Below, piece after piece: positions 8,465 through 60,538 of a DNA stretch of 64,000 nt. Within the stretch, counting starts at the first letter, position 1, and each line of letters opens with the position of its first letter. This DNA is from an uncultured Bacilli bacterium (lineage in GTDB: Bacteria; Bacillota_I; Bacilli_A; RF39; UBA660). The position numbers and the translations under genes were made by a program. The stretch is taken from assembly GCA_910579535.1 (NCBI GenBank), contig CAJTUR010000001.1, forward strand, positions 26,587 through 90,586, in the 5' to 3' direction. Under the pieces are notes generated by a model. The model was not told the DNA's origin and ran no database searches. It worked only from the letters and a program-made list of their open reading frames with translations.

Positions 8465-8615
8465 ATCACTTTATTCACATTATTAACATCTCTGTTGATA
8501 ATTGTTATGCACATTGTTGATAAAAATTGTCGTATTTTTGTTAATAATGTTGATAAATGTCGTAAACTTAGTTAAAATAAGGTCAAATTATTGTTTATAA
8601 CTTGTTAATAAGTTG
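8465..8615. promoter_or_regulatory. oriC DnaA-box cluster upstream of dnaA
   Basis: At least seven 9-mers within 1 mismatch of TTATCCACA/TGTGGATAA: TTATTCACA at 8471, TGTTGATAA three times, TGTTAATAA twice, TGTTTATAA; in an AT-rich untranslated 0.9-kb rpmH-dnaA spacer. Confidence 0.6.
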
Positions 8616-8709
8616 TGTCTAATTGTTTTAATCTTTTCATTTAAATCAAATTGAGCTACAATGAAATTGGTTAGATGGTACAGAATGCGGGGTGAGGATT
8701 TTGGACGTC

Positions 8710-10092
8710 ATGGTTGATAACTTATGGAATAACTTCCTAGAAAATATGAAACTCGAAGTTAATTCGGCTTCTTATAACACTTGGTTTAAAGATTTAAAAT
8801 TATTAAAAATTGAACAGAACAATATGATTGTCCAAGTCCCTACAGATTTTCATAAAAAGTGGTTAAAAGACAATTATTATAGTCTAATTGAAGAAGTTCT
8901 CTCTAAACTTTCTGGGATTTCATACGATATTCAGTTTCTTTTGGAAGAAGAAATAGAAGAACTCATGGCCAAACCTGAACCTGTACCTATTGAAACGGTA
9001 GAACCTGAAGTTATTACAAAAGAAACGATTAATACTGAAGAAGTTTGGAATAGTAATTTAAAATCAGAATTAAACTTTGATAATTATATTGTAGGTGACA
9101 CCAATCGACTTGCTAAAATGGCTGGAATGGCTGTAGCGGAAGAACCGGGTAAAATACATAACCCTTTATTTATTTATGGTAAAAGTGGTCTTGGAAAAAC
9201 ACATCTCATGCACGCTATAGGGAATTTTATTACTGAACACACAAACAAAAGGGTTTTATATACAACCAGTGACATGTTTATGAATGACTATATTGGCATT
9301 GCTAATCAATCTAAGGGACAAAATACGATTGATTATGCTAATAACTTTAAAAAGAAATATCGAAATGTTGATGTCTTAATTATTGATGATATTCAATATT
9401 TAGTAGGAGCCGAAAAAACACAAGAGGAATTCTTTTATACCTTTAATGAACTTCATCGTTCCAATAAACAATTAATTATTAGTTCTGATCGAAGTCCTAA
9501 TGATTTAAAACTTCTGGAAGAAAGACTTAGAAGTCGGTTTATGTGGGGACTTCCTGTTAACATTTCACCGCCAGATTTTGATCTTCGTTGTCGAATTGTT
9601 AAACAGAAAATTTCGGGATTTAATATTGAAGCTAAAATCAATGAAGATGTTATTGAATTTATTGCCAACAGTTGTCCTAATGATGTTCGTTTTTTAACTG
9701 GAACTATTAATCGATTGATGGCTTATACAGCCATGATTGTTCCAAAAGTGATTGACCTTGAATTTGCTAATGAAGCTTTAAATGATTATGTTAATAAAAA
9801 CATTTACTCAGACAATACGATTGAAAATATTCAAAAAGTGGTGGCGGATTTTTATCATATTACAGTCGAGAATCTGAAAGGAAAAAGAAGAACTCAAAAT
9901 ATTGCGAATGCACGGCTTGTTGCTATGTATCTTTGTCAAATGTTAACAGAAGAAACGACTTCGAGAATTGGGTTAGAATTTGGCGGTAAAAACCATGCGA
10001 CAGTCATCCATGCTCGTAATAAAATAAGTAATTCTTTAAAAGTGGATAAAAAATTGGAGTTGGAGATTAATGAAATAAAAAGTAAATTGTGA
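8710..10092 (+). CDS. dnaA: Chromosomal replication initiator DnaA (ATG at 8710 preferred; the ORF track uses GTG at 8692)
   Basis: Walker A GKSGLGKTHL, AAA+ box, C-terminal DNA-binding domain; RBS GGTGAGGA upstream of 8710. Confidence 0.95.
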   Translation: MVDNLWNNFLENMKLEVNSASYNTWFKDLKLLKIEQNNMIVQVPTDFHKKWLKDNYYSLIEEVLSKLSGISYDIQFLLEEEIEELMAKPEPVPIETVEPEVITKETINTEEVWNSNLKSELNFDNYIVGDTNRLAKMAGMAVAEEPGKIHNPLFIYGKSGLGKTHLMHAIGNFITEHTNKRVLYTTSDMFMNDYIGIANQSKGQNTIDYANNFKKKYRNVDVLIIDDIQYLVGAEKTQEEFFYTFNELHRSNKQLIISSDRSPNDLKLLEERLRSRFMWGLPVNISPPDFDLRCRIVKQKISGFNIEAKINEDVIEFIANSCPNDVRFLTGTINRLMAYTAMIVPKVIDLEFANEALNDYVNKNIYSDNTIENIQKVVADFYHITVENLKGKRRTQNIANARLVAMYLCQMLTEETTSRIGLEFGGKNHATVIHARNKISNSLKVDKKLELEINEIKSKL

Positions 10093-10211
10093 AAATGTGA
10101 ATAATTATTCACAAGTTATTCTTGTCTCCATGCTAGAATATAAAAGAAAAAAAAGGGTTATAAACATTATCAACAGTATAATAATAAAAAAATAAGAAAG
10201 AAGGAACCAAA
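10093..10211. promoter_or_regulatory. dnaA-dnaN intergenic DnaA boxes and AT-rich DNA-unwinding-element candidate
   Basis: TTATTCACA (inverted GTGAATAAT) and TTATCAACA near-consensus boxes followed by a run of over 30 A/T. Confidence 0.5.
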
Positions 10212-11330
10212 ATGAAATTTACAATTGATAAAAATATTATATTAGAAAATTTAAACCATGTTATTAAAGCTATCTCAACTAAAAATGTTATCCCCGTTTT
10301 AAATGGTATTAAATTTGAGTTAACAAGTGAAGGATTATCCTTAACTGCAAGTGATAGTGACTTAACGATTAATTCTTTTATTCCACAAAAAGAAATTAAA
10401 AATGTGGAAAGTGAAGGAACTATTGTTATTCAAAGTAAGTTTATTTTAGACATAATAAGAAAATTGCCTAGTGATATCATCAATTTTGAAGTTATTGATC
10501 GTTTGAAAATTAGAATTTATACTGATTTTGCTCAATATCATTTAAATTGTTTAGATGCGAATGATTATCCTAACCTTAGAATGGATGAACATAAAGACCC
10601 TATTTTATTAAAAGGAGAGATATTAAAATCTTTAATTAATCAAACGGTTTTTGCCATTTCAACACAAGAGTTAAGACCCTTATTGACTGGAGTAAACGTT
10701 ACAATTGCTGGGAATTTATTAGTGTTTATTGCAACGGATTCTTATCGTTTAGCTAAAAAGACCATTGAACTTTCTCATCCTATTGATACTGATATTAACA
10801 TTGTTATTCCAGGAAAAAATATTTTAGAACTTGAAAAAATTCTTACTGATGATGAAATGGTGGAAATGCATATTTTTAATAATAAGGTCTTATTTAAATA
10901 TAAGAATATTAAATTTCAAACTAATTTATTGTCAGGACAATATCCGAATACTTCTAATCTTATTCCTAGTGAATTTGGTATGGAAGTAAAGTTGAATAAA
11001 GATGATTTTGGTTCTAGTGTTGATCGTGCAGCATTATTGATTCAAGGAAAAGATAAAAATATTATAAGAATGAGTATTGCTAAACAAGAAATGACGATTA
11101 CTTCTTATGCCAGTGAAAGTGGAAAACTTGAAGAAAAACTTCAAATTGATACTGATGAAGGGGCAATGATTGATATTTCTTTTAGTGCTAAATATATGTT
11201 AGAAGCTTTAAAAACAATAAAGGACGATAAAATTGTTTTGTTATTAACTAATGATATTAAGCCTATTATTGTAAAATCTGTAGAGGATGAGTCCCTTATT
11301 CAACTTATTTTACCTATTAAAACTTTTTAA
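10212..11330 (+). CDS. dnaN: DNA polymerase III beta sliding clamp
   Basis: 372 aa with the typical three-domain beta clamp; conserved position. Confidence 0.95.
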   Translation: MKFTIDKNIILENLNHVIKAISTKNVIPVLNGIKFELTSEGLSLTASDSDLTINSFIPQKEIKNVESEGTIVIQSKFILDIIRKLPSDIINFEVIDRLKIRIYTDFAQYHLNCLDANDYPNLRMDEHKDPILLKGEILKSLINQTVFAISTQELRPLLTGVNVTIAGNLLVFIATDSYRLAKKTIELSHPIDTDINIVIPGKNILELEKILTDDEMVEMHIFNNKVLFKYKNIKFQTNLLSGQYPNTSNLIPSEFGMEVKLNKDDFGSSVDRAALLIQGKDKNIIRMSIAKQEMTITSYASESGKLEEKLQIDTDEGAMIDISFSAKYMLEALKTIKDDKIVLLLTNDIKPIIVKSVEDESLIQLILPIKTF

Positions 11331-11425
11331 AAAATGAACTTTTTGTTCGTTTTTTTCTTTTTCGACATTTTTCTTTCTTTTTATTCGATAGGATAGGACG
11401 CAATTATTTATGAGGAGAGGATTAT

Positions 11426-11872
11426 ATGGAAAATTATAAAATTAATGATAAAACGATGGCTTTGTATTCTTTAAATGCAAAAACAAGAGTATATGAAGAA
11501 GAAAAGTGTTTTGAGGTTGAGGAAACGGCGAATCATATTATGGAAAATAGCTGTTCTTATTATGGGAGTAGTTTAGAAGGAAGAAAAAAAGGGTCTACTT
11601 CTTTAATTGGAGCAAAGTATAAAGTTCCAGTTATAGTGGAAGAAAGTAAAAATATTATCTTTTTTCCTACAGACTCATCTAAAAAGAAAAATTGTACGTG
11701 GATTCGGTTTAATAAAATAGATACGTATTATTATCATCAAGGACGATTGGTTCTTTGTTTTAAAAATGGAGATAAATTAGTATTGGATCATTCTTTACCT
11801 GTTATTGAAAATCAAATTTTACGTTCTACTCGATTAGAAGCACTTATAAGAGAAAGAAAAAATGGTGAATAA
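11426..11872 (+). CDS. ComK-family protein (competence transcription factor family)
   Basis: SCSYYGSSLEGRKKGSTSL and KVPVIVEESKNIIFFPTDSSKKKNCTWI align with B. subtilis ComK SCRFFGSSYAGRKAGTYEV and KPPIMVDPSNQIFLFPTLSSTRPQCGWI; it sits in the dnaN-recF slot. Confidence 0.7.
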   Translation: MENYKINDKTMALYSLNAKTRVYEEEKCFEVEETANHIMENSCSYYGSSLEGRKKGSTSLIGAKYKVPVIVEESKNIIFFPTDSSKKKNCTWIRFNKIDTYYYHQGRLVLCFKNGDKLVLDHSLPVIENQILRSTRLEALIRERKNGE

Positions 11873-11980
11873 GTATGAAAAAATCTTTTAAATAGGTTAA
11901 TAAGTATGGTATAATTTAGTTAGGTATAGGAGTACATATTACCTATTATTTTTATTATATGGGCATAAAAGAGGTAAAAT

Positions 11981-13075
11981 ATGCAAATTCAAGAATTAAA
12001 ATTGCTTAATTTCCGTAATTACGATCGAGTTCAGGTTTCTTTTGATTCGCATTTAAATATTATTTATGGAAAAAATGGGAGTGGAAAAACCAATTTAGTA
12101 GAATCTATTTATTTTCTAGCTTTAACTAGATCGTTTAAACAATCTAATGATAGAGTTTTGATTCGAAGTCATACCAATTTAACTAAAGTAGAGGGGGTTA
12201 TCTATAATCAATATCAAACTACTTATAAAGTCATTTTATCCGATGAGGGCAAGACTGTAAAAATTGACAATAATAAAATTTCTAAAATTAGTGATTATAT
12301 ATCAAAAATTAATGTTGTTTTGTTTAGTCCAAATGATTTAAAAATGATTAAGGATACACCAAGTGTACGACGTAAATATTTAAATATTTTGGTTTCACAA
12401 TTAGATGTTTCTTATTTAAAAGAGTTAAATCAGTATAATAAATTACTTAAGGTGAGGAATGCTTATTTAAAAAAAATGTATTTAAATGGAAATGCACTTA
12501 TGATTTACTTAGATGTTGTTACTGAAAAACTAGTAGAAGTTGGATTAAGTATTTATGAGATACGAAAGAAATGTCTTTTTGAAATTAATTCTTTTATTGG
12601 GGAAATCTATAAAGATATAGCCTTAAATGATGAATTAAAAGTAAAGTATGTTAGTGATTATGAAAATAAAACAAGAGAGGAAATTCTTGATTATTATAAG
12701 AAAACTAAGAGTAAAGATATTAGTTTTGGTAAAACCAATTTTGGTATTCATCATGATGATTTTCTTTTTCTTTTAAACGATTATGATATAAAGGATTATG
12801 GAAGTCAAGGACAACAAAAAAATGCTGTAATCGCTTGGAAATTTAGTGAAATGATGCTGTTTAAACAATTAAAATCGATTTTGCCTATTTTGATTTTAGA
12901 TGATTTATTAAGTGAGTTAGATAAGGAAAAGATTAAAAATATTCTTTCGTTTATTGATGATAAAATTCAGACTTTTATTACTACTACTGAGATTGAAAAA
13001 ATAGAATCTTTACTTATAGATAAAACCTATAAAAAAATAAATGTGTCAAATGGACAACTGGAGGAGGTATTATAA
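11981..13075 (+). CDS. recF: DNA replication and repair protein RecF
   Basis: Walker [13 protein letters not shown]-like signature; conserved position. Confidence 0.95.
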
Positions 13076-14997
13076 TGAAAGAAAATGAAGTGCATTATAA
13101 TGATGATGATATTCAAGTTCTAGAAGGGTTAGAAGCTGTACGTAAAAGACCAGGCATGTATATAGGAACCACAAGTGAAAAAGGATTGCATCATTTAGTT
13201 TGGGAAATAGTTGATAATGCGATAGATGAAGCTCTTGCGGGGTATTGTGATGATATTGAAGTTGTTATTGGTAAAGGAAATACGATTACTGTTAAAGATG
13301 ATGGTAGAGGTATGCCTACAGGAATTAACAAAAAGACAGGGTTATCAACAGTAGAAACTATTTTTACAGTGCTGCACGCTGGTGGTAAGTTTGGTGGTGG
13401 TGGCTACAAAGTAAGTGGAGGATTACATGGTGTTGGAGCGAGTGTTGTTAATGCATTATCTTCTTGGCTTGAAGTTACCGTTTATCATGATGGGAAAATT
13501 TTTTATCAAAAGTATCAAGATGGTGGAAAGCCTGTTGAACCTTTAAAAGAAATTGGTGTGTGCGAAGAAAATCGTACTGGTACAACTGTAACATTCAAAG
13601 CAGATCCAGAAATTTTTACGGAGACAACTATTTATAATTATGATGTTCTTGCTAAACGATTACAAGAATTGGCTTTTTTAAATAAAGGGATAAGAATTAT
13701 TCTTTTTGATGAAAGAGAAGAAGAGAAACATCATGAATTTTTATATAATGGGGGAATTATAGAATATGTCCAGATGCTTAATAAGAATAAAGACCCCATT
13801 CATAAAGACGTCATTTATTTTGAAGGAACAGAAGATGGAATAGAACTTGAAGTGGCCATGCAATATAACGATTCTTATAATGCCAGTGTTTATAGCTTTA
13901 CAAATAATATTAATACATATGAAGGTGGAACTCACGAAGATGGTGTAAAAAGAGCTTTAACTCGTATTATTAACAATTATGCTAAAAATAATAAAATTTT
14001 AAAAGAAAATGATGAAGCATTAACAGGAGAGGATGTAAGAGAAGGTTTAACAATGATTATTTCTTGTAAACATCCTGATCCTCAATTTGAAGGACAAACA
14101 AAGACAAAACTAGGAAATGCTGAAGTTCGTAAGATTGCTGATGATGTATTTAGTGAGGGCTTTGAACGATTCTTAATGGAAAATCCTAACGAGGCACGAC
14201 TTATTGTGGATAAAGCTTCTACAGCTGCTAGAGCAAGATTAGCAGCGAAAAAGGCTAGAGAGTTTACAAGGAGAAAAAGTGGTTTAGATACGTTTAACAC
14301 ACTTGGTAAACTTACAGATTGTACGAGTAAAGATGCGAGTGTGTCAGAAATATTTATTGTCGAAGGAAATAGTGCAGGTGGTAATGCGAAAGATGCACGT
14401 ATTCCTAAAACTCAAGCGATTCTTCCATTAAGAGGAAAGATACTCAATGTAGAGAAAGCAAGACTAGATCGAGCTCTTTCTAATGAAGAAATACGAACGA
14501 TGATTACCGCTTTTGGTACGGGTATTGGGGATGATTTTGATATTAGTAAACTTCGTTATCATAAAATTATTATTATGACTGATGCCGATGTTGACGGATC
14601 ACATATTCAAATCTTGTTATTAACATTATTCTATCGTTTTTTTAGACCCATTGTGGAACAAGGGTATGTTTATGTTGCTAATCCTCCATTATTTAAGGTT
14701 ACTTATGGAAAGAATATTAAGTATGTTCTTACGGAAGAGGAATTAAATGAATATCGAGCTACGTTGCCAGTAAACTCTAAGCCAATGATTAATCGTTTTA
14801 AAGGACTTGGAGAAATGGATGCTGTGGATTTAAGAGAAACGACTATGCATAGCGATAATCGTATTCTAAGAAAAGTTACCGTGGAGGATGCAATGGCAGC
14901 CGATAAGATTATTACCGATTTTATGGGTGATGAAGTTTTTCCAAGAAAAATGTTTATTGAAGAGCATGGCCATGAATATACGGATTTAGATGTTTAG
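13075..14997 (+). CDS. gyrB: DNA gyrase subunit B
   Basis: 640 aa; GHKL ATPase, [21 protein letters not shown] motifs. Confidence 0.97.
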
Positions 14998-15010: not shown

Positions 15011-17476
15011 ATGGAAAAAATAATTGATAGTAGTATAATTAAAGAGTTTACAGAGTCTTTTGGACGTTATTCGATGAGTGTTATAATTGCTCGTGCTATT
15101 CCGGATTTAAGGGATGGTTTAAAACCTGTTCATCGCCGTATTTTATATTCCATGTATGAATCAAATTATACGCCTGATAAGCCACATAAGAAGTGTGCAA
15201 GAATTGTTGGTGATGTTATGGGTAAATATCATCCTCATGGCGATTCTTCTATTTATGAGGCATTAGTTGGCATGGCACAGGATTTTACGTTCCGACATAT
15301 GTTAGTGGATGGACATGGTAATTTTGGTAATATGGATGGTGATGATGCCGCAGCTATGCGTTATACTGAAGCAAGACTTTCTAAGATTGCTTTAGAAATG
15401 GTTCGAGATTTGAATAAAGAAACGGTTAATTTGGTGCCGAATTTTGATGAAACGGAAGAAGAACCTACGATTTTACCAAGTCGTTTCCCTAATATTTTAG
15501 TGAATGGAACGATGGGTATTGCTGTTGGAATGGCTACTAATATTCCGCCACATAATTTAGGGGAAGTTATTGATGGCTGTGTTGCTTATATTGATAATCA
15601 TGATATTGATACAATGGGACTTATGAACTTTATTAAAGGTCCTGACTTTCCAACAGGAGCTTCTATTTTAGGAAATAGTGGTATCCGAAAAGCTTATGAA
15701 ACAGGAAAAGGTACTATTACTATACGAGGTACGGCAAGTATTGAAGATGTTAACGGAAAGACTCGTATTGTGGTTACAGAGTTACCTTATAAGGTAAATA
15801 AAGCGGAGTTTCAAACGAGAATTGGAGAATTAGTTCGTGATAAAATAATTGATGGAATTAGTGAACTTCATGAGGAATCGAATCTAGAGAACCCTGTTCG
15901 CGTGGTAATTTATTTGAAAAAAGATGCCAACGCTAATGTTATTCTTAATAATTTGTATAAGTATACACAATTACAAACAACGTATGGTATTAATTTATTA
16001 ATGATCGATCAAAATAGTCCTAAGGTCTTGCCTTTAAAGGATATAATTGTAAAATATATTGATTATCAAAAGGAGATAATTATTAGAAGAACGCAATTTG
16101 ATTTAAAGAAGGCTTTGGATCGCGTTCATATTTTAGAGGGTTTAAAGATTGCGCTTGATCATTTAGATGAAGTAATTAAGACGATTCGAGAATCTAAAAC
16201 CGATGTGGTTGCAAAAGAGCAATTAATGTCTAAGTTTGGATTAGATGAAATTCAGGCTAATGCGATTTTAGAAATGAAATTACGTCGTTTAACAGGTCTA
16301 GAACGTGAGAAAATTGAAAATGAATATGCTGAATTAATGAAACTTATTGATGAGTTACGTGCGATTTTAGCGAGTGAAGAAAAAGTACTTGCTGTAATAC
16401 GTGAAGAATTATTGGAAATTAAAGAAAAGTATGCGGATGAACGTCGTACGAATATTGATATGTCAGCGATTGAGTTTATTGAAGATGAGTCCTTGATTCC
16501 TGAGGAAGATATAATTATAGCACTTACTCACAATGGTTATATTAAGCGTACTACAAGTGATACATTTAAACTACAAAATCGTGGTGGAGTAGGTGTTAAA
16601 GGGATGAATACTCACGAAGAAGATTTTGTTGAACATATTGTCAGCTTATGCACTCATGATTATATTTTATTCTTTACAAATAAGGGTAAGGTTTATCGTT
16701 TAAAAGGGTATGAAATACCTGAATTTAGTAGACAATCTAAAGGGTTACCAGTTATTAACTTGCTTCAAATCGAAAAAGATGAAAAGATAAATTCAATATT
16801 AAGTATTGAAAGAGAAGATCAAGCTAAATATTTACTATTTGCGACTAAACAAGGAATTGTTAAACGTACTGCTATTGCTGAGTTTGATAATATTCGTAAC
16901 AATGGTAAGATTTGCATTAGTTTAAGAGAAACAGATGAACTTATTTCAGTACAAAAAACTACTGGAGAAGATTCTATTTTGCTTGGTTCTAGTGATGGGC
17001 GAATGGTTAAATTTATCGAAGATGAAGTACGTGTTATGGGAAGAACCGCTAGTGGTGTTCGTGGTATTACTTTAAATGGTAGTGAATGTATTGGTGCTGA
17101 AAAAGCAATGGAAAATGATTCATTAATTATTGTTACTAAAAAAGGTTATGGAAAACAAACCAATATTTGTGATTATAGACAAACTAAACGCGGAAGTAAG
17201 GGTGTTAAAGCCTTAAATGTTACAGAAAAGAACGGAGATTTAGCTGCATTTAAACTTGCTAAAGAAAATCACGATTTAGTCATTGTTACAAATACAGGCA
17301 TGATTATTAGAGTACCTTTAGATCAAATCAATGTTTTAGGTCGTGTTACTCAAGGTGTTCGACTTATAAACCTTAAGGATAATCAAGAAGTATCTAATAT
17401 TAGCTTAGTTGAAAAGAATAACGAAGAAAATATTGAAACTTCAGAAAACGAAGCAAGTGGTAATGCCAAAGAATAG
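15011..17476 (+). CDS. gyrA: DNA gyrase subunit A
   Basis: 821 aa; active-site AAMRYTE tyrosine, QRDR HPHGDSS. Confidence 0.97.
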
Positions 17477-21205: not shown

Positions 21206-21808
21206 ATGGTTTATCCTAAAAAATTAGAGACTATACTTGAGTATTATAAAAAATTGCCTGGTATAGGAGAAAAAAATGCTGAACGTTTGGCTTTAGCAAC
21301 GCTTGATTTTACAACTGAACAAATTTCAGAATTTAGCGATGCTTTGATTGAAGCAAAAGAACATCTTCGTCCTTGTAAAATTTGTGGGCACCTGACTGAT
21401 CAGGAAATTTGTTCAATCTGTAGTGATGATGGTCGTAATAAAAACATTATTTGTGTTTTAGAAGACTATAAAAGTGTTTTTGCTTTTGAAAAGGCTGGAA
21501 ATTTTAAAGGTGTTTATCATGTCCTTAATGGTCTTATTTCTCCTACAGATGGCATTAGTTATGAAGATATTAATTTGAATAGCTTGTCAATGCGTGTTGA
21601 TACTTTAGATAATCCAGAATTAATCTTAGCCTTAAAATCAAGTATTGAAGGGGAAACCACAACTCTGTTTATCAAAAAAATCTTTGAAGATAAAGATGTT
21701 TTAATTTCTAGATTATCCTATGGTATTCCTATGGGAGCAGATATTGATTATATGGATGTGGTTACTTTAGATAAAGCCTTAGATGATCGTAAGAAAATTT
21801 CAGACTAA
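21206..21808 (+). CDS. recR: Recombination protein RecR (ATG 21206; the track uses GTG 21191)
   Basis: HhH LPGIGEKNAERLA, C4 zinc finger CKICGHLTDQEICSIC, Toprim. Confidence 0.9.
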   Translation: MVYPKKLETILEYYKKLPGIGEKNAERLALATLDFTTEQISEFSDALIEAKEHLRPCKICGHLTDQEICSICSDDGRNKNIICVLEDYKSVFAFEKAGNFKGVYHVLNGLISPTDGISYEDINLNSLSMRVDTLDNPELILALKSSIEGETTTLFIKKIFEDKDVLISRLSYGIPMGADIDYMDVVTLDKALDDRKKISD

Positions 21809-21851
21809 TAATTTTCTAGTTTGTCCATATACATTAATAAAGGTGATTTGG

Positions 21852-22040
21852 ATGATAAAGAAATTTATTTCATTAGTAAAAAAAGTAATTTTTTCATTTT
21901 TGTTGTTGTATGGATTGAATTTATGTATTAATTCTTTAAATATAGTCATTCCTATTAATGTTTTTACTTTAGGAACGGTGACATTTTTAGGGGTTCCAGG
22001 TCTCGTTTCCTTAATTACATTATTTTTTATGACAAAATGA
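21852..22040 (+). CDS. bofA: BofA-like small membrane protein (pro-sigmaK processing inhibitor family); internal start MIKKFISL
   Basis: LNIVIPINVFTLGTVTFLGVPGLVSLI resembles B. subtilis BofA LGIHVPINLVTTAISGILGIPGIAALV; position after recR matches B. subtilis (recR-yaaL-bofA). Confidence 0.6.
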   Translation: MIKKFISLVKKVIFSFLLLYGLNLCINSLNIVIPINVFTLGTVTFLGVPGLVSLITLFFMTK

Positions 22041-28224: not shown

Positions 28225-28740
28225 ATGAAGTCAACTGGTGTGATACGAAGAATTGATGAACTCGGACGTATTGTTTTACCAAAAGAAATAAGAAGAAATT
28301 TAGGGATTAGAGAAGGGGAAAATTTAGAAATTTTTGTTGAAGAAGATAAAATGATTTTAAAGAAGTTTTCTAAAATAAAAGATTATGAAGAAATTATTAA
28401 AAGTATTGGAGAAATTGTAGCGAATATTTATGATCATAAAATTATTGTAACTGATAGAGAAAAAGTAATATATAGTAATATAGAAAATATAGAAAGTGTC
28501 AGTCTTGATAAAAATTTGATAAATTTTATTCAAAATCGTGAAAGTGTTTTAAAAAATAGTTTGCAAGCTTATCATTTTAATGAGGAATTAAAAGGGTATT
28601 ATTTTATTATGCCAATTATTACATCAACGGATTGCTTGGGCTTAGTTTTAATTTATAGTGAAAAAGAACTTAAAGAAGAAAATATTAATTTATTAAAATT
28701 AGTCACTGTTTTGATAAGTAGTAAGATTGATATTGCTTGA
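28225..28740 (+). CDS. spoVT: Stage V sporulation regulator SpoVT (AbrB-type N-domain + GAF-like C-domain)
   Basis: N-terminal swapped-hairpin motif RRIDELGRIVLPKEIRRNLGIREGE; 171 aa; position after mfd as in B. subtilis. Confidence 0.8.
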   Translation: MKSTGVIRRIDELGRIVLPKEIRRNLGIREGENLEIFVEEDKMILKKFSKIKDYEEIIKSIGEIVANIYDHKIIVTDREKVIYSNIENIESVSLDKNLINFIQNRESVLKNSLQAYHFNEELKGYYFIMPIITSTDCLGLVLIYSEKELKEENINLLKLVTVLISSKIDIA

Positions 28741-28759: not shown

Positions 28760-28972
28760 TAAGATACCTTTAATTAACGAAGAAGGAAAGAGTACTGTTT
28801 TGGACTTTTGTAGAGAATTTGCGTTTGGTGAAAGCAAATAAAGAAAAAAGTAGGAAGATGGGTCTGGAGTTAAATCGATTAATTCTCGTTACGAAGGAAA
28901 GTGCGTGTTAAAATCACGAATTAAGGTGGTACCACGGGTAAATTGCTCGTCCTTAATTTGTGATTTTTTTTG
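28760..28972 (+). promoter_or_regulatory. T-box riboswitch leader (antiterminator/terminator)
   Basis: Canonical T-box sequence AATTAAGGTGGTACCACGG at 28919-28937; mutually exclusive terminator AAATCACGAATTAAGG / CCTTAATTTGTGATTTT followed by T8; AGAGA-like element in stem I; RBS GGGAG then ATG 28984. Confidence 0.75.
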
Positions 28973-28983
28973 TTTAAAGGGAG

Positions 28984-30091
28984 ATGAAAGTTATGAATTT
29001 AAGTGAAATTAATCAAAGAATCAGTGATAGAAGCGATTGTTTTTATTGGCAAACTGATAGAAAAATAAGTGCTCAAGAAGCATCTATGATATGGAAAGAT
29101 AGACATTCAGCTATAATTAATGAAGAATTATTAGATAAAGTCAATTTAGAATTAAAGGGTGATCGAGTCATTTCAATTGATTTTGATGAAAAGATTCAGA
29201 TGAGTTCCAGCAATGTTAATTCAATAAGAGTTGGAGTTTTAGAAAGTGGAAAAGAAGTCATTATAAGGTGCCATCCTAAAGGAGTTAAAAATGGGTATTT
29301 TTATGTTGAAAGTTTAGCTTCTCAAATTGCATTAGAAAATGGACTTCCTTCATATAAAACTTATTGTATTCATGAATTAGAAAATGAGAATGATATTTCT
29401 TATCAAGTTATAGAGAAGTTAAGTGGAGATACCGTTCAATTTTGTTTAAAAGAACACCCTGAAAAAGAAGAACGACTTGTTATGGAAATGGGTAAAACAA
29501 TGGCAAGACTTCATAAAATAAAAATTAATGGATTTGGTCCTTTTGATAATGAACAAGCTAAAAATGGTAAACTTGTAGGAAAATATGAATCATTAAAATG
29601 CTGGATTAGAAGAAAATCTTGAAAGATTAGTAAAATATAATATTTTAAGTAAAGATATGGCTGATAAAATGAAAGCATTATTTGATGATAATGAATTACT
29701 TAATTCAGATGTATCAGTTTTAATTCATAATGATTTTGCTGATTGGAATTTGTTAACTGATGGTAATTCAATTACAGGTATTATAGATTGGGATGAATGT
29801 GTTGCCGGAAATCCTATAGAGGAAATCGCTTGTTGGTCAACATTTTTTGAACCAGAAAGAATAAAACCATTTTTAAAAGGTTATTTTAGTGACATTCCAA
29901 TATATGACCATTTTGATGAGATGTTTCAATTAATGAGATTAAGGTATACTATTTCAAAAATGGCATTAAGAATTAAAAGATATACTTATGAACAAACACC
30001 TTTTTTAGAAAGTATGATTGAAAAAGGTAAAAAGCATTTGGATGAGTTAATAGAAATATTTCAATTAAATGATTGTAATAAAAAAATATAA
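28984..30091 (+). pseudogene. Phosphotransferase-family (APH/choline-kinase fold) gene split by a frameshift near 29597-29620
   Basis: ORFs 28984-29622 and 29657-30091 are N- and C-halves of one kinase-fold protein (Brenner motif IHNDFADWN, IDWDE). The downstream reading frame is already open from 29597 and reads ..AGLEENLERLVKYNILSKDMADKM.., so a 1-nt indel in a short A-run joins the two halves. Confidence 0.6.
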
Positions 30092-31006: not shown

Positions 31007-32521
31007 ATGAAAGAAAAATATTATATTACAACAGCGATAGCGTATACATCAAGTAAACCTCATATTGGAAATACGTATGAAGTTGTTTTAGCAGATGCTA
31101 TTGCAAGATATAAAAGATTAAAGGGGTATGATGTTTATTTTCAAACTGGAACAGATGAACACGGAGAAAAAATTGAGAAAAAAGCAAAAGAGGCAGGCAT
31201 TACCCCTCAAGAGTATGTCGATAAAGTAGCAAGAGAGATAAAAAGTATTTGGGATTGTATGAATACTTCTTATGATAAATTTGTGCGTACTACTGATAAG
31301 AACCATGAACGAGTAGTTCAAAAGATTTTTAAAAAAATGTTTGATAAAGGAGATATTTATTTAGATTCGTATGAAGGGCCTTATTGTGTTCCTTGTGAAT
31401 CTTTTTGGACAGAAAGCCAACTGGTTGATGGTAAGTGTCCTGATTGTGACAGAGAAGTGGAATTAAAAAAAGAAGAAGCTTATTTTTTTAAGTTAAGTAA
31501 GTATCAAAAAAGGTTGATGGAGTATATCGAAAGTCATCCAGAATTTATACAACCTGAAGCGCGAAAAAATGAGATGATAAATAATTTTCTGAAACCTGGC
31601 TTGCAAGATTTATGTGTTTCTAGAACGTCCTTTGATTGGGGGATACCTGTTTCCCATAATCCGAAGCATAATGTTTATGTTTGGCTTGATGCTCTCACGA
31701 ATTATATTACGAATATTGGTTACGATATAGATGAGTCAAGTCCGGAATTTAATAAATGGTGGCCAGCTGATTTGCATTTAATTGGAAAAGATATTATTCG
31801 TTTTCATACGATTTATTGGCCTTGCTTTTTAATGAGTTTGAATTTACCTTTACCTAAACAAGTTTTTGGTCATCCGTTTCTTATTATGAGTGATGGCAAG
31901 ATGAGTAAATCCAAAGGAAATGTTATTTATGCGGATGATTTAGTTAATGAATTTGGCGCAGATGCGATTCGTTATTATATGCTTCATGAGATTCCATTTG
32001 CAAGTGATGGTGTTTTTTCAAGAGAACTATTAATCGAAAGAATTAATGGTGATTTAGTAAACATTTTAGGTAATTTAGTGAATCGAACATTAGCGATGAG
32101 TAAAAAGTATTTTTCTAATCATTTAGAGAATAAGGGAGTAGGAACTTCTTATGATGTGCAACTTCTATCAATGGTTAATGCTTTGGAAATGAGAGTGGAA
32201 GAGAAAATGAATACTCTAGAAATTGGAAGTTCTATTGACGAAATCTTTGAAGTTCTTAGAAGGTGTAATAAATACATTGATGAAACCACGCCTTGGGTTA
32301 TAGCTAAAGATGAGAGTAGGAAAGCGTGTTTGGAAACTGTTCTTTATAACTTAGTTGAAGCAATACGAGTTTGTGCTTTATTTTTAGAACCGTTTTTACC
32401 AAACACAAGTGAAGAGATTATTAAACAAATAAATATAAAGGATAAGAATAGGCAGTTTAATAAAGAAAACGTTTATGATTTAAATGAAGCTAAAATTTTA
32501 TTTCAAAGAATTGAAGTTTAA
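31007..32521 (+). CDS. metG: Methionyl-tRNA synthetase (short form without the C-terminal tRNA-binding domain)
   Basis: HIGN (HIGH) and KMSKS motifs, zinc knuckle CVPC..CPDC. Confidence 0.95.
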   Translation: MKEKYYITTAIAYTSSKPHIGNTYEVVLADAIARYKRLKGYDVYFQTGTDEHGEKIEKKAKEAGITPQEYVDKVAREIKSIWDCMNTSYDKFVRTTDKNHERVVQKIFKKMFDKGDIYLDSYEGPYCVPCESFWTESQLVDGKCPDCDREVELKKEEAYFFKLSKYQKRLMEYIESHPEFIQPEARKNEMINNFLKPGLQDLCVSRTSFDWGIPVSHNPKHNVYVWLDALTNYITNIGYDIDESSPEFNKWWPADLHLIGKDIIRFHTIYWPCFLMSLNLPLPKQVFGHPFLIMSDGKMSKSKGNVIYADDLVNEFGADAIRYYMLHEIPFASDGVFSRELLIERINGDLVNILGNLVNRTLAMSKKYFSNHLENKGVGTSYDVQLLSMVNALEMRVEEKMNTLEIGSSIDEIFEVLRRCNKYIDETTPWVIAKDESRKACLETVLYNLVEAIRVCALFLEPFLPNTSEEIIKQINIKDKNRQFNKENVYDLNEAKILFQRIEV

Positions 32522-35690: not shown

Positions 35691-35843
35691 CGAAATTAGA
35701 CGAACGAAAATGCTTGAAAAAAATTTTGATTTTTGTTAAGTTTGTTTTTAATGAATTTTAGTCTGTATCATTAATAGGAGGGAAAAAGAGAAATTTTGGA
35801 ATGAAATGTTTTTTTTAGAATATAAATTATATAGGTGAAGGAG

Positions 35844-36620
35844 ATGCAAATAAAAAAGGGAGACTTGGTTACTCGAAATAGTTATCAACATGATACGCTT
35901 TTTAAGGTCATGAATATTAAGGGAAATATCTGTTATCTAAAAGGTATAGATGTTCGTCTTTATGCCGATAGTGAAGTAGATGATTTGGTTCTGGTTAGTG
36001 AAGAAGAACAAGGAAACTTACGAATTGAAGTTGATGAGGAAGAGGATGACTTGGATCGAAGTGAGTTTTTTTATTTACCTGGAAAGGTTTTGCATATTGA
36101 TGGAGACAGTGAGTATTTAACTCGTTGTTTGAATTATTATAAAAAACATAATGTTTTAGCTATAGGAAAAAAAATCATGGAAGTGGAAATTGCTTCAAAA
36201 GTCCGTGGATTGTTAGAAGATTTTAAACCTGATTTAGTTATTATTACAGGTCATGATGCTTATTATAAAAAGAAGGGTAATGCTAGTGATTTAAGAAATT
36301 ATAAAAATACAGAAAATTTTGTTAAAGCAGTAAGAGAATGTCGTAAATATGAAAAAAGTCATGAAAAATTAGTGATTATTGCGGGTGCTTGTCAGAGTAA
36401 TTATGAAGAGTTAATTAAAGCAGGTGCTAATTTTGCTTCAAGTCCTAAAAGAGTAAATATTCACTGTTTGGATCCAGCAATTATTGCAACTCATCTTGCT
36501 TTAACGGAAAGGAATAAAGAAGTGGATTTGATTGCTTTGCTTGAAAAGACAAAATATGGTAGTGATGGGGTTGGTGGGTTGTTTTCAAAAGGGCTTATGT
36601 ATGTTGGATACCCTAGATAA
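35844..36620 (+). CDS. yabG: Sporulation-specific protease YabG
   Basis: About 258 aa, homologous over its length to the YabG peptidase family; position after rsmA as in B. subtilis (ksgA-yabG-veg). Confidence 0.75.
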   Translation: MQIKKGDLVTRNSYQHDTLFKVMNIKGNICYLKGIDVRLYADSEVDDLVLVSEEEQGNLRIEVDEEEDDLDRSEFFYLPGKVLHIDGDSEYLTRCLNYYKKHNVLAIGKKIMEVEIASKVRGLLEDFKPDLVIITGHDAYYKKKGNASDLRNYKNTENFVKAVRECRKYEKSHEKLVIIAGACQSNYEELIKAGANFASSPKRVNIHCLDPAIIATHLALTERNKEVDLIALLEKTKYGSDGVGGLFSKGLMYVGYPR

Positions 36621-36920: not shown

Positions 36921-37184
36921 ATGGAAATTACATCAGTAACCGTTCGTAAATTTGAAAAAGATGGAAACAGAATGAAAGGAATCGCAACAGTAGTGATTGA
37001 TAATTCATTTGCTATTCATGATATTAGAATTATTGAAGGTGATAATGGCTTATTTATAGCTATGCCTAGTAGAAAAACAGCTACTGGGGAATATAAAGAT
37101 ATTGCACATCCAATTAATACAGATGTTCGTAATATGTTTCAAGATGTTATTTTAGAAGAATTTAAAAAAGAAACAGCTGAATAA
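36921..37184 (+). CDS. spoVG: Septation protein SpoVG
   Basis: MEITSVTVRKFEKDGNRMKGIATVVIDNSFAIHDIRIIEGDNGLFIAMPSRK is the hallmark SpoVG sequence. Confidence 0.9.
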   Translation: MEITSVTVRKFEKDGNRMKGIATVVIDNSFAIHDIRIIEGDNGLFIAMPSRKTATGEYKDIAHPINTDVRNMFQDVILEEFKKETAE

Positions 37185-37275: not shown

Positions 37276-37566
37276 ATGGATAAAGAAATGGATACAATAA
37301 TTTTAGGTGGTCATGAAATCAAAATTAGTGATCGAAGAGAAATCTTTTTAACTGGTATTAAAAAAATTTCTAGTTTTGATAATGAAGAGTTTTTATTAGA
37401 AAGTAATATGGGGATTATTTTAATTAAAGGGAGTGGCTTAGAAATTCTTAGATTGGATACTCATGATGGAAATGTGAAAATAAAGGGAAAAATAAATAGT
37501 TTTACGTATCTAGATAGTGATAAAAAAGAAGATAAAGAAAGTTTTTTTAATAAATTATTTAAATAA
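37276..37566 (+). CDS. yabP: Sporulation protein YabP
   Basis: 96 aa; ESFDNEEFLLESNMGIILIKGSGLEI and C-terminal SFFNKLFK match YabP; followed by yabQ with a 1-nt overlap. Confidence 0.75.
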   Translation: MDKEMDTIILGGHEIKISDRREIFLTGIKKISSFDNEEFLLESNMGIILIKGSGLEILRLDTHDGNVKIKGKINSFTYLDSDKKEDKESFFNKLFK

Positions 37567-37871
37567 TGAATTATAAAATTCAGTTAATTTCCTTTTTATT
37601 TTCTTTTTTGTTTGGTGTATTTTTGTATTTAACTAGTTTATTAAATTATAAATTTATAAAAAAACACTCCATTTTTATAAAATATTTGGTTACTTTTGTT
37701 TATGTTGTCGATGTAGCTCTTTTATATGTTTTATTAATGTATAAAGTTAATTATGGTGTGATTCATATTTATTTTTTATTAGTGATGGGCATTGGTTTTC
37801 TTCTTTCTTGTTTTTATTATAAACGAATTTATAGACTGGGTAAAATCATGCTTCAAAAATTTAAAAAATAG
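37566..37871 (+). CDS. yabQ: Spore cortex biosynthesis membrane protein YabQ
   Basis: 101-aa multi-pass membrane protein directly after yabP. Confidence 0.6.
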   Translation: MNYKIQLISFLFSFLFGVFLYLTSLLNYKFIKKHSIFIKYLVTFVYVVDVALLYVLLMYKVNYGVIHIYFLLVMGIGFLLSCFYYKRIYRLGKIMLQKFKK

Positions 37872-42339: not shown

Positions 42340-42410
42340 GGGGATATAGTTTAATGGTAGAATAGTAATCTCCAAAATTAAAGATGTGGGTTCGATTCCC
42401 ATTATCTCCA
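42340..42410 (+). tRNA. tRNA-Trp (anticodon CCA) carried on the element
   Basis: Cloverleaf folds; GGGGATA/TATCTCC acceptor, GTTTAATGGTAGAAT D-arm, anticodon loop CTCCAAA, TGGGTTCGATTCCCA T-arm. Closely parallels B. subtilis tRNA-Trp (GTTTAACGGTAGAAC..CTCCAAA..TGGGTTCGATTCC); one G:A mismatch at the top of the anticodon stem; no encoded CCA end. Confidence 0.8.
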
Positions 42411-42679
42411 TTTTTATTAAACTAGCAATTCTCGATTCCTTGGTGTCTATAGCAACACTAGTTTTGCCTATGAGTATTTCCATTATAATTGTTATGATAA
42501 ATCTTATCATAAAGCTATTAGTTGAAAAGAAAGAGGGTACTATGATAACAATAAAAGGTGTAAACTGCAGTGTTTATGTAGGTAACCTATATGTTGGTTG
42601 TTATTGTAAAGGATAGAGTTTTGTATAGATTTGCAGTTGAGGTGTGAATCCTCTTACCTACACCATTTTTGGGTATTAA

Positions 42680-42710
42680 TTAAGGTACTTTGATAGGAAA
42701 GTATCTTTTT
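42680..42710 (+). repeat. 31-bp direct repeat copy B (TTAAGGTACTTTGATAGGAAAGTATCTTTTT)
   Basis: See copy A. Confidence 0.8.
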
Positions 42711-42744
42711 TGATGGTATAATATTTAATGATTTGGTGAAAAAT

Positions 42745-43746
42745 ATGTATTTAGATGAAGATAAAATAAAAGATTATAATTTTTTGATGTTATGTAATAA
42801 CTATATCGTTAGTATTTTGGAACGAGCTGATTTAAAAAAATGGTCTGAAGAGAAGATAGATTTCAAAGATAAGGATAAAAAGAAACTTGATTCAAATAAG
42901 TATGATATTTTCTATTTTAGAAATCATGGATATGCTACAGTAATAAATAAAAGTCTATATAAGCATATAATTTTTTCATTAATTTCTGATTATAATATCT
43001 ATGTTAAAGATGCAATTGATTGTTGTTTAAAAGGTCATTTTAGTGTAGCATATACTCTTTTAAGGAAACCATTTAAGGATGATTTGTTTATGATAGAATT
43101 ATTTTATGTTTCTGGCTATAGAATAATTTCTAAGTTTGCAAATAGTTCTATAGAAAATTTTAGAATTGAGAGTTATTCTGAAAATGAAAAGAAAAAAGTA
43201 TTAAGAAAGGTTTGTAAAAAGATAAATTTTTTTACTGCTAAAAAATTATACGACTTACGATATTCATCTAACTCATATGAAGGGTTAGAAAAATTTTGGA
43301 ATAAAGCTATACACATAGTAACGAGTAGAAAAAATTATAAAACTGAAGATGCTAATTTCAATATGATATTTTATGATGATAATGTTGTAGCTGAGCAGAT
43401 TACCTATATCTACAAAGTATTATGTTCTATTCAATTATATTTTATTGTTCTCATCTCAAACATTTTGTTAGAAGAACAATTAATAACTGAAAATGAGTAT
43501 AATTTTAATATTAACAATTTGTTTTATGCTTTTTGCATTACTTTAGACAATTATAATTTAACATCTGAACAAAAAGATTCTTTAATATATGTATGCAAAT
43601 ATTGTGGTTGCCAAAATATATTTAATCATGAACAATTTATGAATAATTATAATAAAGGAATTTTTAAGAGAAAATGCGGTAAGTGCAATAAGACTTATGA
43701 AATAAGAAAATTTGATTTCTATGATTTTAAGGATAAAGTTAATTGA
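42745..43746 (+). CDS. Hypothetical protein with a C-terminal Cys4 zinc-ribbon (CKYCGC..CGKC)
   Basis: ATG 42745 with a GGTGA RBS (the track starts at TTG 42733); no family recognised. Confidence 0.5.
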   Translation: MYLDEDKIKDYNFLMLCNNYIVSILERADLKKWSEEKIDFKDKDKKKLDSNKYDIFYFRNHGYATVINKSLYKHIIFSLISDYNIYVKDAIDCCLKGHFSVAYTLLRKPFKDDLFMIELFYVSGYRIISKFANSSIENFRIESYSENEKKKVLRKVCKKINFFTAKKLYDLRYSSNSYEGLEKFWNKAIHIVTSRKNYKTEDANFNMIFYDDNVVAEQITYIYKVLCSIQLYFIVLISNILLEEQLITENEYNFNINNLFYAFCITLDNYNLTSEQKDSLIYVCKYCGCQNIFNHEQFMNNYNKGIFKRKCGKCNKTYEIRKFDFYDFKDKVN

Positions 43747-43756
43747 AAACTATTAG

Positions 43757-43786
43757 GAGATACTTGAAGAAAGTATCTTTTATTAT
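43757..43786 (+). terminator. Hairpin AGATACTTgaagaAAGTATCT + T4 (terminator and possible oriT-type inverted repeat upstream of the relaxase gene)
   Basis: Perfect 8-bp stem; shares the AAAGTATCTTTT arm with the 31-bp repeats. Confidence 0.5.
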
Positions 43787-43816
43787 GCAAATTTAAGAAA
43801 GCGAGGAATGATATGT

Positions 43817-45097
43817 ATGAATTATGGAATATTTAGAAGTCAACCAATAATGACTATAAATGATTTAGCACAAATAGGATCACACAATAAACGAGATAAA
43901 AAAGCCTATAAAAGTAATCCAAATATTAAATTAGAATTAACTAAAAATAATATAGAATTAGTACCCTTATCAGAAAAGTATGTTAAGGGTTTTAAATTGC
44001 TTGTAAAAGATTATGAAAAAGAACACAATGAACGAATGAAAACTGAACGACCTGAAAGAAAAAAGACCTTTAATGAAATGTTAAATAAATCTAAAAGTGT
44101 TGTAGCTGATGAACTCATGTTTACTGCAACCCATAAATTCTTTGATAATATGAGTAATGATGAAATAATGAGATGGGCTGATACTTGTATGGATTTTGTT
44201 TACAACGATTTAGGTTATAAGAAAGAACAGATATTACACGCAACAATACACATGGATGAACTAACACCTCATATTCATTGTGTAGTTGTACCACTTGTTA
44301 AAAAGTTAGATAAAAGAACAAATATTGAAAGATTAACTATTTCTAAAAAGCAATATATTAGAGATAATATTCATTTATCAGAATTACAAGATATTTATAA
44401 TTTAAGATTAAGAGAAAATGGTTTCGAACTAGAACGAGGTATTAAGGGTAGTAATAGAAAACATGAAAAAGTAAAAGAGTTTAAGAAAACAACTAGATAT
44501 TATGAAGATAAGGTAACCACTATCAATAAAAGTCTTGATAATGCTATGAATGAATTTGAAGAAAAAATGAAAACTACTAAAAATACTTTAATAGATAAAG
44601 AATATGTAAAAGTACGAAAAGATACTTTTGATAGTATGAAAAATGTAATAAAAGAAACTAAAAAGATTATGGAATTTCAACCCAAAATGGAGCAATTATT
44701 TAATGAGGTAAATACTTTTAGCAAAAGTCATCAAACATTAGAAAAAGAAAATGCAAATTTACAACGAGAAGTAAAAGCACTTACTACTAGAAATCAAAAC
44801 TTAACGAAAGAGAATAACCATCTTAAAGACTATTTAAAAGCCATTTTGGAGGCAATAAAGCACTTTTTTAGGGAATTACTACAAATTGGTAATGAACCTA
44901 CAAAAGAAGTCACTACAACTGAAATAAAAGACTATTTTGATAACAACGACTTTGATATGAATGATGTTGTTGAAATATCAAGAGGAACTACCAAAGAAGA
45001 TGAATTATTTGATTATGTAAAAGCACCTAGTTATTTAAAAACTAATAAAAAAGCTTATAACAATAAAGACAAGGAGGATTATGAGTTATCTTTATAG
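43817..45097 (+). CDS. MobV-family relaxase (Mob/Pre plasmid recombination enzyme)
   Basis: N-terminal MNYGIFRSQPI..HNKRD (compare MobM MSYMVARMQKM..HNER) and the metal-binding HATIHMDELTPHIHCVVVP (MobM SVHLDESTPHMHMGVVP); long coiled-coil C-half. Confidence 0.8.
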   Translation: MNYGIFRSQPIMTINDLAQIGSHNKRDKKAYKSNPNIKLELTKNNIELVPLSEKYVKGFKLLVKDYEKEHNERMKTERPERKKTFNEMLNKSKSVVADELMFTATHKFFDNMSNDEIMRWADTCMDFVYNDLGYKKEQILHATIHMDELTPHIHCVVVPLVKKLDKRTNIERLTISKKQYIRDNIHLSELQDIYNLRLRENGFELERGIKGSNRKHEKVKEFKKTTRYYEDKVTTINKSLDNAMNEFEEKMKTTKNTLIDKEYVKVRKDTFDSMKNVIKETKKIMEFQPKMEQLFNEVNTFSKSHQTLEKENANLQREVKALTTRNQNLTKENNHLKDYLKAILEAIKHFFRELLQIGNEPTKEVTTTEIKDYFDNNDFDMNDVVEISRGTTKEDELFDYVKAPSYLKTNKKAYNNKDKEDYELSL

Positions 45098-45398
45098 CAA
45101 AACTTACAAAATCCGAAATTTGACAAGATAGTGTAAATGTGATAAAATTTAGTTGATTTTTGAAAAGGAGAGATTGTTATGTTAAAAATTAATAATATAG
45201 TTAGACAACATCATCATAATAATCTGCACTTGTTAATACGACATTAAAATTTGATCGTAGGCACAAGTGCTATTTGTGGTGCTTGTTGCCTGTATTAAAT
45301 ATAGAAATGAACTATACAGGTAAATAAAATCTGTATAGTTTTTATTTTAGGTAATTAGCATCACTTAAAAAATATTATATGAAAGAGAGATGCTAATT

Positions 45399-47823: not shown

Positions 47824-47824
47824 T

Positions 47825-49114: not shown

Positions 49115-49123
49115 TACTATGGA

Positions 49124-49171
49124 AAGCCGAAATCCAAAAGAAACTTCGTAACTAATGGATTTCGGTTTTAA
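49124..49171 (+). terminator. Terminator of the HisRS operon
   Basis: AAGCCGAAATCC/GGATTTCGGTTT stem followed by T4. Confidence 0.5.
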
Positions 49172-49434
49172 CTAACTTTTAGACAAGTTAGTAACACACT
49201 ACGATATTGGCAAGCCAATAACGATGTGTGCCAAGGGAATTTTCCCTTTGGAAACCCTAGAAGCAACTTATATTGCAAAGTTTCACAATGTAATATAGTT
49301 GCCTTTTTATTTCACTATCGCTACATAAAAAGAAAAAGATTATCGCTGCGTTCATTTGCTAAAGCAAACAAAACGCACCCCACCTTTTTATAAAAAAAAT
49401 AGTCTAATCGCTAATCTTACGAAAAGCGAAAAGA

Positions 49435-50371: not shown

Positions 50372-50386
50372 TGTAATACACCTCAC

Positions 50387-53360: not shown

Positions 53361-53407
53361 GATAAAAGATGATAATTTGGACTTTTCCGATTCCTGCACA
53401 TGGAGGA

Positions 53408-60535: not shown

Positions 60536-60538
60536 TTC

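Follow-up and report, generated by a model that had tools for sequence, protein, structure and literature searches.

A short-form comK gene in the dnaN-recF gap of uncultured RF39 bacteria, with putative Spo0A boxes at its promoter

What is a gene for the competence regulator ComK doing between dnaN and recF, beside the replication origin? An open reading frame (ORF) of this kind was noticed, by a reading of the letters alone, in a stretch of 64,000 nucleotides (nt) from an uncultured Bacilli bacterium of the RF39 lineage (GenBank assembly GCA_910579535.1, contig CAJTUR010000001.1, positions 26,587 to 90,586 of the forward strand), which we call the window. The cluster order in Bacillus is dnaA-dnaN-yaaA-recF-yaaB-gyrB-gyrA, and the sequence-only reading placed the ORF, which encodes 148 amino acids (aa), in the slot of the S4-like gene yaaA (rlbA), embedded in the replication operon. 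The genes and sites at this locus are the following:

8471..8556, upstream of dnaA: oriC part 1, five clustered DnaA-box-like 9-mers
8692..10092 (+): dnaA, assigned from the ORF list, by homology and by the Pfam families of homologous genes
10041..10175, dnaA-dnaN junction: oriC part 2, four clustered DnaA-box-like 9-mers
10212..11330 (+): dnaN (sliding clamp), upstream of comK
11412-11420 (+): strong comK Shine-Dalgarno sequence GAGGAGAGG, six bases ahead of the ATG
11426..11872 (+): comK-family gene, short form, 148 aa, ATG start
11981..13075 (+): recF, downstream of comK, its stop overlapping the gyrB start
13075-14997 (+): gyrB, abutting recF
15011-17476 (+): gyrA, after gyrB

The ORF is real and complete, its neighbours were confirmed, and no rival ORF of at least 40 aa overlaps 11426-11872 on either strand. 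A ComK gene does fill the dnaN-recF gap, as had been claimed; neither an S4-like small ORF nor yaaB/remB was found at the locus, where recF abuts gyrB, and inspection by eye of the small ORFs without assignment in the window, only some of which were also scanned against Pfam, showed no S4-like one. Firmicute origins have a bipartite pattern of DnaA boxes, and the two clusters seen here, together with the divergent rpmH-rnpA-yidC-jag genes upstream of dnaA, confirm the origin region.

A profile search placed the 148-aa protein firmly in the ComK family (PF06338, E=1.3e-36, a score of 126.1 bits where the cut-off is 22.3), as the sequence-only reading had proposed from its motifs. The match covered positions 1-150 of the 152 of the model and residues 1-144 of the protein, that is, the whole domain. 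No other Pfam or NCBIfam family was matched, so that a different family, which would have refuted the reading, was not indicated, and a sequence search of the PDB matched no solved structure. The motifs listed in that reading are present, and they were invariant or nearly so in an alignment of 23 homologues, which had 19 invariant columns: C43, G47-S48-S49, G52-R53, P81-T82, S84, C90, W92 and N129-Q130 were invariant or conserved in at least 90% of the sequences. Their counterparts in B. subtilis ComK are identical and fell into the same columns, residues 9-157 of that protein being aligned with residues 1-144 here at 29% identity (E=1e-21). The B. subtilis sequence used in this alignment is 76% identical to a database representative (P0288), so it is at least approximately right. 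The AlphaFold 2 model of the 148-aa protein has a single domain (predicted local distance difference test score 89.6, predicted template modelling score 0.85).

The ORF is therefore an intact, full-length member of the ComK family, and it is best read as encoding a functional short-form DNA-binding transcription factor, predicted to consist of the ComK domain only. That it could be a truncated remnant had been admitted by the sequence-only reading, and the protein does fall about 44 aa short of the length of B. subtilis ComK. However, the whole Pfam domain is covered, the fold is confident, the motif residues are invariant, the Shine-Dalgarno sequence and the start are kept among relatives, the length is 146-162 aa in 88 of the 88 related loci described below, and the family is conserved in hundreds of relatives and comprises thousands of homologous clusters. 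These conservation data already refute a decaying remnant or a chance ORF, and we leave practically no probability to either.

A protein search returned 43 homologues of 145-178 aa and one fragment of 95 aa, a profile search returned 2248 ComK clusters at 90% identity, and at least 491 loci that encode such a protein were met in a scan of metagenomes, the best 80 of which were fetched. A set of 88 loci (L001-L088) was then compared by tblastn with DnaA, DnaN, ComK, RecF and GyrB of the window. The order dnaA-dnaN-comK-recF-gyrB was nearly universal over this set, and it held at ComK identities of 40-85% and DnaN identities down to about 45%. Where the flank reached 700 nt or more, dnaN was the upstream neighbour of comK at 72 of 73 loci, and recF the downstream neighbour at 61 of 65. 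The four exceptions on the recF side were two gatCAB loci, an insertion sequence (IS) insertion (L088) and a locus whose recF start could not be set (L021). Both gatCAB loci, L038 (comK at 100-549) and L055 (comK at 718-1170), belong to one lineage, in which comK, either relocated or in a second copy, stands beside a gene for a small membrane protein and gatC-gatA-gatB, and they are the only real exceptions to the dnaN-comK-recF placement.

Some loci carry additional material around comK. An IS30-like transposase gene is inserted after comK in L088 (3947-4906, -), an ORF of 600 codons lies between dnaN and comK in L030 (1998-3800), and about 260 extra bases separate comK from recF in L001 (6448-6813).

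The closest genome matches were two metagenome-assembled genomes (MAGs) with the same gene order as the window. DnaA of the window is 99% identical to that of L002, the MAG MGBC121705, which is classified as Firmicutes; Bacilli; RF39; CAG-1000; genus UMGS1217 (Mouse Gastrointestinal Bacteria Catalogue, PMC8763404 supplement). The window must accordingly stem from this RF39 genus or from one very near to it. Judged from contig names, the sources of the relatives included rumen, termite, mouse and human gut. RF39, RFN20, ML615J-28, Erysipelotrichales, Acholeplasmatales and Mycoplasmatales have been described as one fast-evolving clade (PMC10868615). The placement of comK, which the sequence-only reading called unusual, is so when set against the model Bacilli, but within this lineage dnaN-comK-recF is the rule.

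Pairwise identities of ComK and DnaN were correlated (Spearman 0.52), and the guanine-plus-cytosine content of comK (0.26-0.28) is the same as that of dnaN and recF, both of which fit long inheritance in place. The best reading of these results is that comK has been vertically inherited at a fixed dnaN-recF position in RF39 and in deeply diverged relatives. Horizontal acquisition of the gene was also considered and was rejected in view of its normal base composition and conserved position.

The protein is shorter than canonical ComK and has no C-terminal tail, a remark of the sequence-only reading that was borne out by the alignment with B. subtilis ComK: it ends 3 residues past the ComK domain, and B. 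subtilis ComK runs on for 34. When the profile was scored against 1.84 billion representative proteins, 1715 ComK clusters at 50% identity were obtained, and tail length was measured in 135 full-length sequences (the protein of the window, the B. subtilis sequence mentioned above and 133 from among the 150 best representatives). At most 12 residues followed the domain in 108 of these 135, and at least 25 in only 22. The short length is thus a trait of the subfamily, and the majority state among the closest representatives of the family. In a neighbour-joining tree the long forms grouped together, flanked by short ones, which is a weak indication that the Bacillus branch acquired the tail. In B. 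subtilis the ComK protein ends in the MecA/ClpC degron, FMLYPKEERT...GERY (PMC8138137), and a B. subtilis ComK lacking the last 25 residues still bound DNA and no longer activated comG (PMC3128618). The region absent from the protein studied here corresponds to that degron and that activation region.

The sites that bear on transcription on either side of the gene are as follows:

11329..11355 (+): terminator-like hairpin followed by a T-run, beginning in the dnaN stop codon (-9.2 kcal/mol, z = -3.8)
11361..11367 (+): exact TTCGACA heptamer, ending 21 nt upstream of the putative -10
11384-11390 (+): degenerate box TTCGATA
11389..11394 (+): putative comK -10, TAGGAT, aligned to the TGnTATAAG / TGATAGAGT extended -10 of relatives
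11887..11915 (+): recF-gyrBA promoter, TTTAAA, 17 nt, TGgTATAAT
11923..11935 (+): conserved motif GGTATAGGAGTAC, with the 12-nt core GTATAGGAGTAC at 11924-11935

The comK promoter of the relatives shows an extended -10 but lacks a canonical -35, and upstream of it there are one to three copies of TTCGACA on the same strand, as in TTCGACAAAATTCGACAAATTTCGACA of L059, L082 and L084. These boxes were counted in 71 dereplicated dnaN-comK spacers; shuffled spacers served as one control, and as the other a second-order Markov model for which the 71 spacers were the training set. The exact heptamer was found in 39 of the 71 spacers, compared with 0.16 in shuffles and 7.4 (maximum 12) under the Markov model; 58 of 71 had it with at most one mismatch, and 32 of 71 had two or more boxes, where 0.23 were expected. 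Its density was 6.3 per kb on the forward strand of the dnaN-comK spacer and zero on the reverse strand, and did not exceed 0.13 per kb in any other spacer or coding sequence sampled. Successive boxes were phased: 38 of 43 pairs had a start-to-start spacing of 10 bp (25 pairs) or 20 bp (13 pairs), and the distance from the last box to the TGnTATAAG-type -10 was 11 nt at 14 loci and 21 nt at 9. Degenerate phased boxes and a TGnTAAT -10 were also present upstream of comK at the two loci beside gatCAB; because the phased architecture accompanies comK to that site, the boxes belong to comK and not to the origin region.

Over the 64 kb of the window TTCGACA occurs 5 times, compared with 4.5 expected, and the comK copy is the sole intergenic one. 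A search of the same 64 kb for tandem boxes gave 7 matches against 4.6 expected, and nothing convincing among them.

TTCGACA is the exact reverse complement of TGTCGAA, the core of the 0A box of Spo0A, at 7 of 7 positions. Spo0A binds head-to-tail to boxes one helical turn apart, and at spoIIG the 0A boxes overlap a poor -35. The best-conserved positions of the box matrix were C3, G4 and C6, and the lineage variants TTCGACC and TTCGTCG keep the equivalent contact positions; C6, G4 and C3 are the complements of G2, C4 and G5 of TGTCGAA, which Spo0A contacts (PMC3485338). At the B. subtilis comK promoter Spo0A~P binds directly, to three activating and two repressing boxes (PMC3297582). The window also carries sporulation genes:

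21783-22040: bofA
28225-28740: SpoVT-like gene
35835-36620: yabG (YabG protease)
36921-37184: spoVG
37276-37566: yabP
37566-37871: weak yabQ match

Their presence agrees with the published prediction that RF39 bacteria are spore-forming, for which spo0A is an absolute requirement (PMC10868615). Taken together, the identity with the 0A core, the conservation of the contacted bases, the precedent of B. subtilis comK and the sporulation genes make Spo0A the most economical binder; the heptamers are putative Spo0A boxes, and comK is probably gated by Spo0A.

The hairpin that begins in the dnaN stop codon, the conserved promoter region of comK and the conserved promoter of recF together indicate that comK is not simply a cistron of a dnaN-recF message, and we predict a separately regulated unit. 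The claim that the gene is embedded in the operon therefore goes too far. A strong terminator follows comK in many relatives (for example -14.7 kcal/mol in L029). In one sub-lineage the dnaN hairpin is made of inverted DnaA-box-like sequences (GTGGATA...TATCCAC) followed by TGTGGA(A/T)AA; in these loci (L051, L053, L057, L061, L063, L064, L072, L075-L078 and L080) such boxes are placed outside the usual two oriC clusters and directly upstream of the comK promoter boxes.

The extended -10 of recF (TGnTATAAT) was conserved in 64 of 66 dereplicated comK-recF spacers and, because recF abuts gyrB, its promoter is in effect that of the gyrase operon. The GTATAGGAGTAC core sits 8-10 nt past this -10. 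With at most two mismatches it was found at 43 of 64 loci and in only 4 of 3200 shuffled controls, its positions G6, G7, T2, T10 and A11 were nearly invariant, and it occurs once in the 64-kb window. The core may be a control element of the gyrase operon, such as a supercoiling-sensitive promoter, an operator or a stabiliser of the 5'-end. A structured RNA in the recF leader was considered and set aside in favour of a sequence motif: no Rfam family was matched, the hairpin had an unremarkable energy (z=0.01), and RNAalifold gave no consensus fold for 64 sequences.

These results can be joined in a mechanism. The short-form ComK would be made from its own promoter, which would be weak when unaided, having an extended -10 and no canonical -35, and Spo0A~P, bound head-to-tail at one to three phased boxes, would gate comK transcription by activation, repression or both. 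Entry into the ComK programme would in this way be tied to the signal that governs sporulation, as in Bacillus. As the MecA/ClpCP degron is absent, control is probably transcriptional, and the ComK level would follow transcription and the copy number of an early-replicated gene next to the origin; a high, replication-sensitive copy number may reinforce the control. In the pneumococcus, competence is activated because the distribution of gene copy numbers becomes distorted (PMC5034851). The output, judged from family membership only, would most likely be control of genes for DNA uptake and recombination in other parts of the genome. The reading as a whole, that is, a vertically inherited, origin-proximal, short-form ComK that is separately transcribed, gated by Spo0A and in control of DNA uptake, is the one we lean towards, with only a little more than even confidence.

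Several observations weigh against it. The window itself has one exact box and its TAGGAT has no TG extension, and 13 of the 71 spacers were box-free even when one mismatch was allowed. Boxes located at about -24 to -30 could serve for repression and not for activation. No spo0A, com gene or ComK target was found within the 64 kb by gene content and Pfam scans. No convincing terminator follows comK in the window (-1.3 kcal/mol), so read-through from comK into recF is possible there. The behaviour of B. subtilis ComK without its last 25 residues and of the naturally tail-less B. cereus ComK2, which reduces comG expression (PMC3128618), means that a tail-less ComK need not be an activator. The ComK boxes that the sequence-only reading proposed to look for upstream of late-competence genes did not appear: no pairs of A4-N5-T4 K-boxes with 8- or 18-bp spacers were present in the 64-kb window with at most one mismatch, and the window holds no com genes near which they might lie. 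In the 71 spacers K-boxes were no commoner than in the second-order Markov control. An enrichment of such AT-rich boxes over mononucleotide shuffles, considered as evidence of autoregulation, was rejected, as it was gone under the Markov control and its matches lay in the A/T tracts of terminators at varying positions.

Two other explanations of the same data have to be weighed against Spo0A gating of a competence regulator. One is that the phased TTCGACA boxes are bound by the short ComK itself, in positive or negative autoregulation, or by another regulator that binds repeats. We take this for rather unlikely, and for ComK it would imply that the specificity in this clade differs from that for the A4-N5-T4 boxes of B. 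subtilis. ComK does activate its own promoter in B. subtilis (PMC3297582), and since no canonical K-boxes lie upstream of comK here, autoregulation would need another site; the boxes, moreover, accompany comK to the gatCAB location. Among solved structures, the ComK model came closest to LytTR domains (3d6w of B. cereus, E=1e-3, AgrA and the streptococcal competence regulator ComE; E=1e-3 to 5e-2, probability 0.94-1.0). However, these matches were weak (template modelling score 0.4-0.5, 10-15% sequence identity), and the Pfam LytTR family was not matched by the 148-aa protein; the likeness of the model appears to be one of fold and not of family membership. A 2026 preprint groups another ComK by fold with AgrA-LytTR, RemA and SwrD (PMC13232269). 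The 10-bp head-to-tail period of the boxes also differs from that of LytTR sites, at which repeats recur at roughly 21 bp. The heptamer equals the 0A core throughout, its best-conserved bases are the ones that Spo0A contacts, and the box was absent from the other spacers sampled, a sample without ComK target promoters; on these grounds Spo0A is preferred as the binder.

The other explanation is that the short ComK does not activate competence, and works as a DNA-binding repressor or anti-repressor or in a replication or repair role tied to its neighbours, for example via GTATAGGAGTAC. Its position beside dnaN and recF, fixed across deep divergence, would fit such a role, as would a locus-specific motif close behind the recF -10 that has no conserved RNA fold and so may be a DNA or protein-binding site, and the failure of the truncated B. 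subtilis ComK and of ComK2 to activate comG. Yet conservation of gene order is by itself no proof of functional coupling, the motif could equally be a feature of the gyrase-operon promoter or leader that is independent of ComK, and the short forms are the majority and flank the long ones in the tree, so the tail may be an addition of the Bacillales that is not generally needed; we hold this explanation to be unlikely. More doubtful still is a bolder proposal, which would make the dnaN-comK-recF arrangement itself functional: a replication-coupled switch gated by Spo0A and free of MecA/ClpCP, reading origin copy number and Spo0A~P and controlling DNA uptake, recF-gyrBA via GTATAGGAGTAC, or both, with the short ComK ancestral and the Bacillus form derived.

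The reading that we favour, Spo0A gating of a short competence regulator, can be compared with known systems. The protein resembles B. subtilis ComK along the whole length of PF06338, including the SC..GSS..GRK.G, FPT.S....C.WI and ENQ motifs, and differs from it in having neither the 8 N-terminal nor about 34 C-terminal residues, the latter including the degron and the comG-activation region. The gene lies between dnaN and recF, unlike B. subtilis comK, which maps at a distant locus away from these genes, and it has no A4-N5-T4 K-boxes upstream; the direct link to Spo0A at the promoter, shown in B. subtilis (PMC3297582) and predicted here, is probably common to both. B. cereus ComK2 (BC5250), also naturally tail-less, is 22 aa shorter at the C-terminus (PMC3128618). 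ComK2, however, accompanies a full-length ComK1 as a second copy and reduces comG expression, whereas at the locus studied here the short form is the sole copy seen, and it is the form found lineage-wide. A competence-control gene also lies beside oriC in S. pneumoniae, where replication stress raises the copy number of comCDE (review, PMC5034851), but that regulator is an unrelated one, the two-component ComDE with its peptide, and the dosage parallel would hold here only by analogy. With Spo0A-controlled promoters (abrB, spoIIG and comK) the comK promoter of this lineage shares the exact 7-bp core, in several same-orientation copies one turn apart that lie over a poor -35 region. One helical turn is the spacing of the 0A boxes in abrB and spoIIG. 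The window, however, has a single exact box, itself a putative Spo0A site. With yaaA/rlbA the gene shares the slot in the gene order, but the ComK protein is unrelated to the S4-like one.

In the literature searched, no paper was found that connects ComK with a place between dnaN and recF or that deals with ComK in RF39. Three things appear to be undescribed: the fixation of comK at this place throughout the lineage, the 0A-type boxes phased ahead of it, and the conserved element at the recF-gyrBA promoter. The protein itself is already labelled 'competence protein ComK' by public MAG annotation pipelines, and each ingredient has its precedent in the tail-less ComK2, in Spo0A at the comK promoter and in the origin-proximal competence genes of the pneumococcus, so that we deal with a known type of regulator and not with a new system.

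Elsewhere in the window the gene order is that of the B. subtilis origin region, with tadA, the signal recognition particle RNA, dnaX, ybaB, recR, bofA, holB, pth, mfd and the spoVT-like gene, and it continues with metS, tatD, ksgA, yabG, veg, spoVG, yabP, the yabQ-like gene, divIC, truA, rplM and rpsI. A T-box leader (28771-28957, 113 bits) precedes an ORF of 212 aa without Pfam match and then a short APH-like (phosphotransferase) fragment (28984-30091); it does not stand ahead of an aminoacyl-tRNA synthetase gene or of an obvious amino-acid gene, metS lying further downstream (31007-32521). A probable integrative mobilisable island (42340-62000) directly follows a tRNA gene and holds, besides several ORFs without Pfam match, the following features:

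42340-42410: tRNA gene
43808-45097: Mob_Pre relaxase
49868-50386 (-): helix-turn-helix regulator
51753-53360: large serine recombinase
56854-57666: Fic protein
58436-61879: type I restriction-modification genes hsdM/hsdS

The bacteria of RF39 and its sister orders are abundant in the gut, have small genomes and, to our knowledge, include no cultured representative. An intact ComK under apparent purifying selection suggests that a programme controlled by ComK survives in RF39, and the Spo0A-type boxes at the promoter suggest that this programme is wired to the master regulator of sporulation, as it is in Bacillus. For the family, the textbook ComK of 192 aa, which carries a MecA degron, turns out to be in the minority among the closest representatives. 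The promoter of 95 bp, the protein of 148 aa and the 12-nt element of the gyrase-operon promoter offer compact material on which the action of a ComK without its tail, and the effect of proximity to the origin, may be tested.

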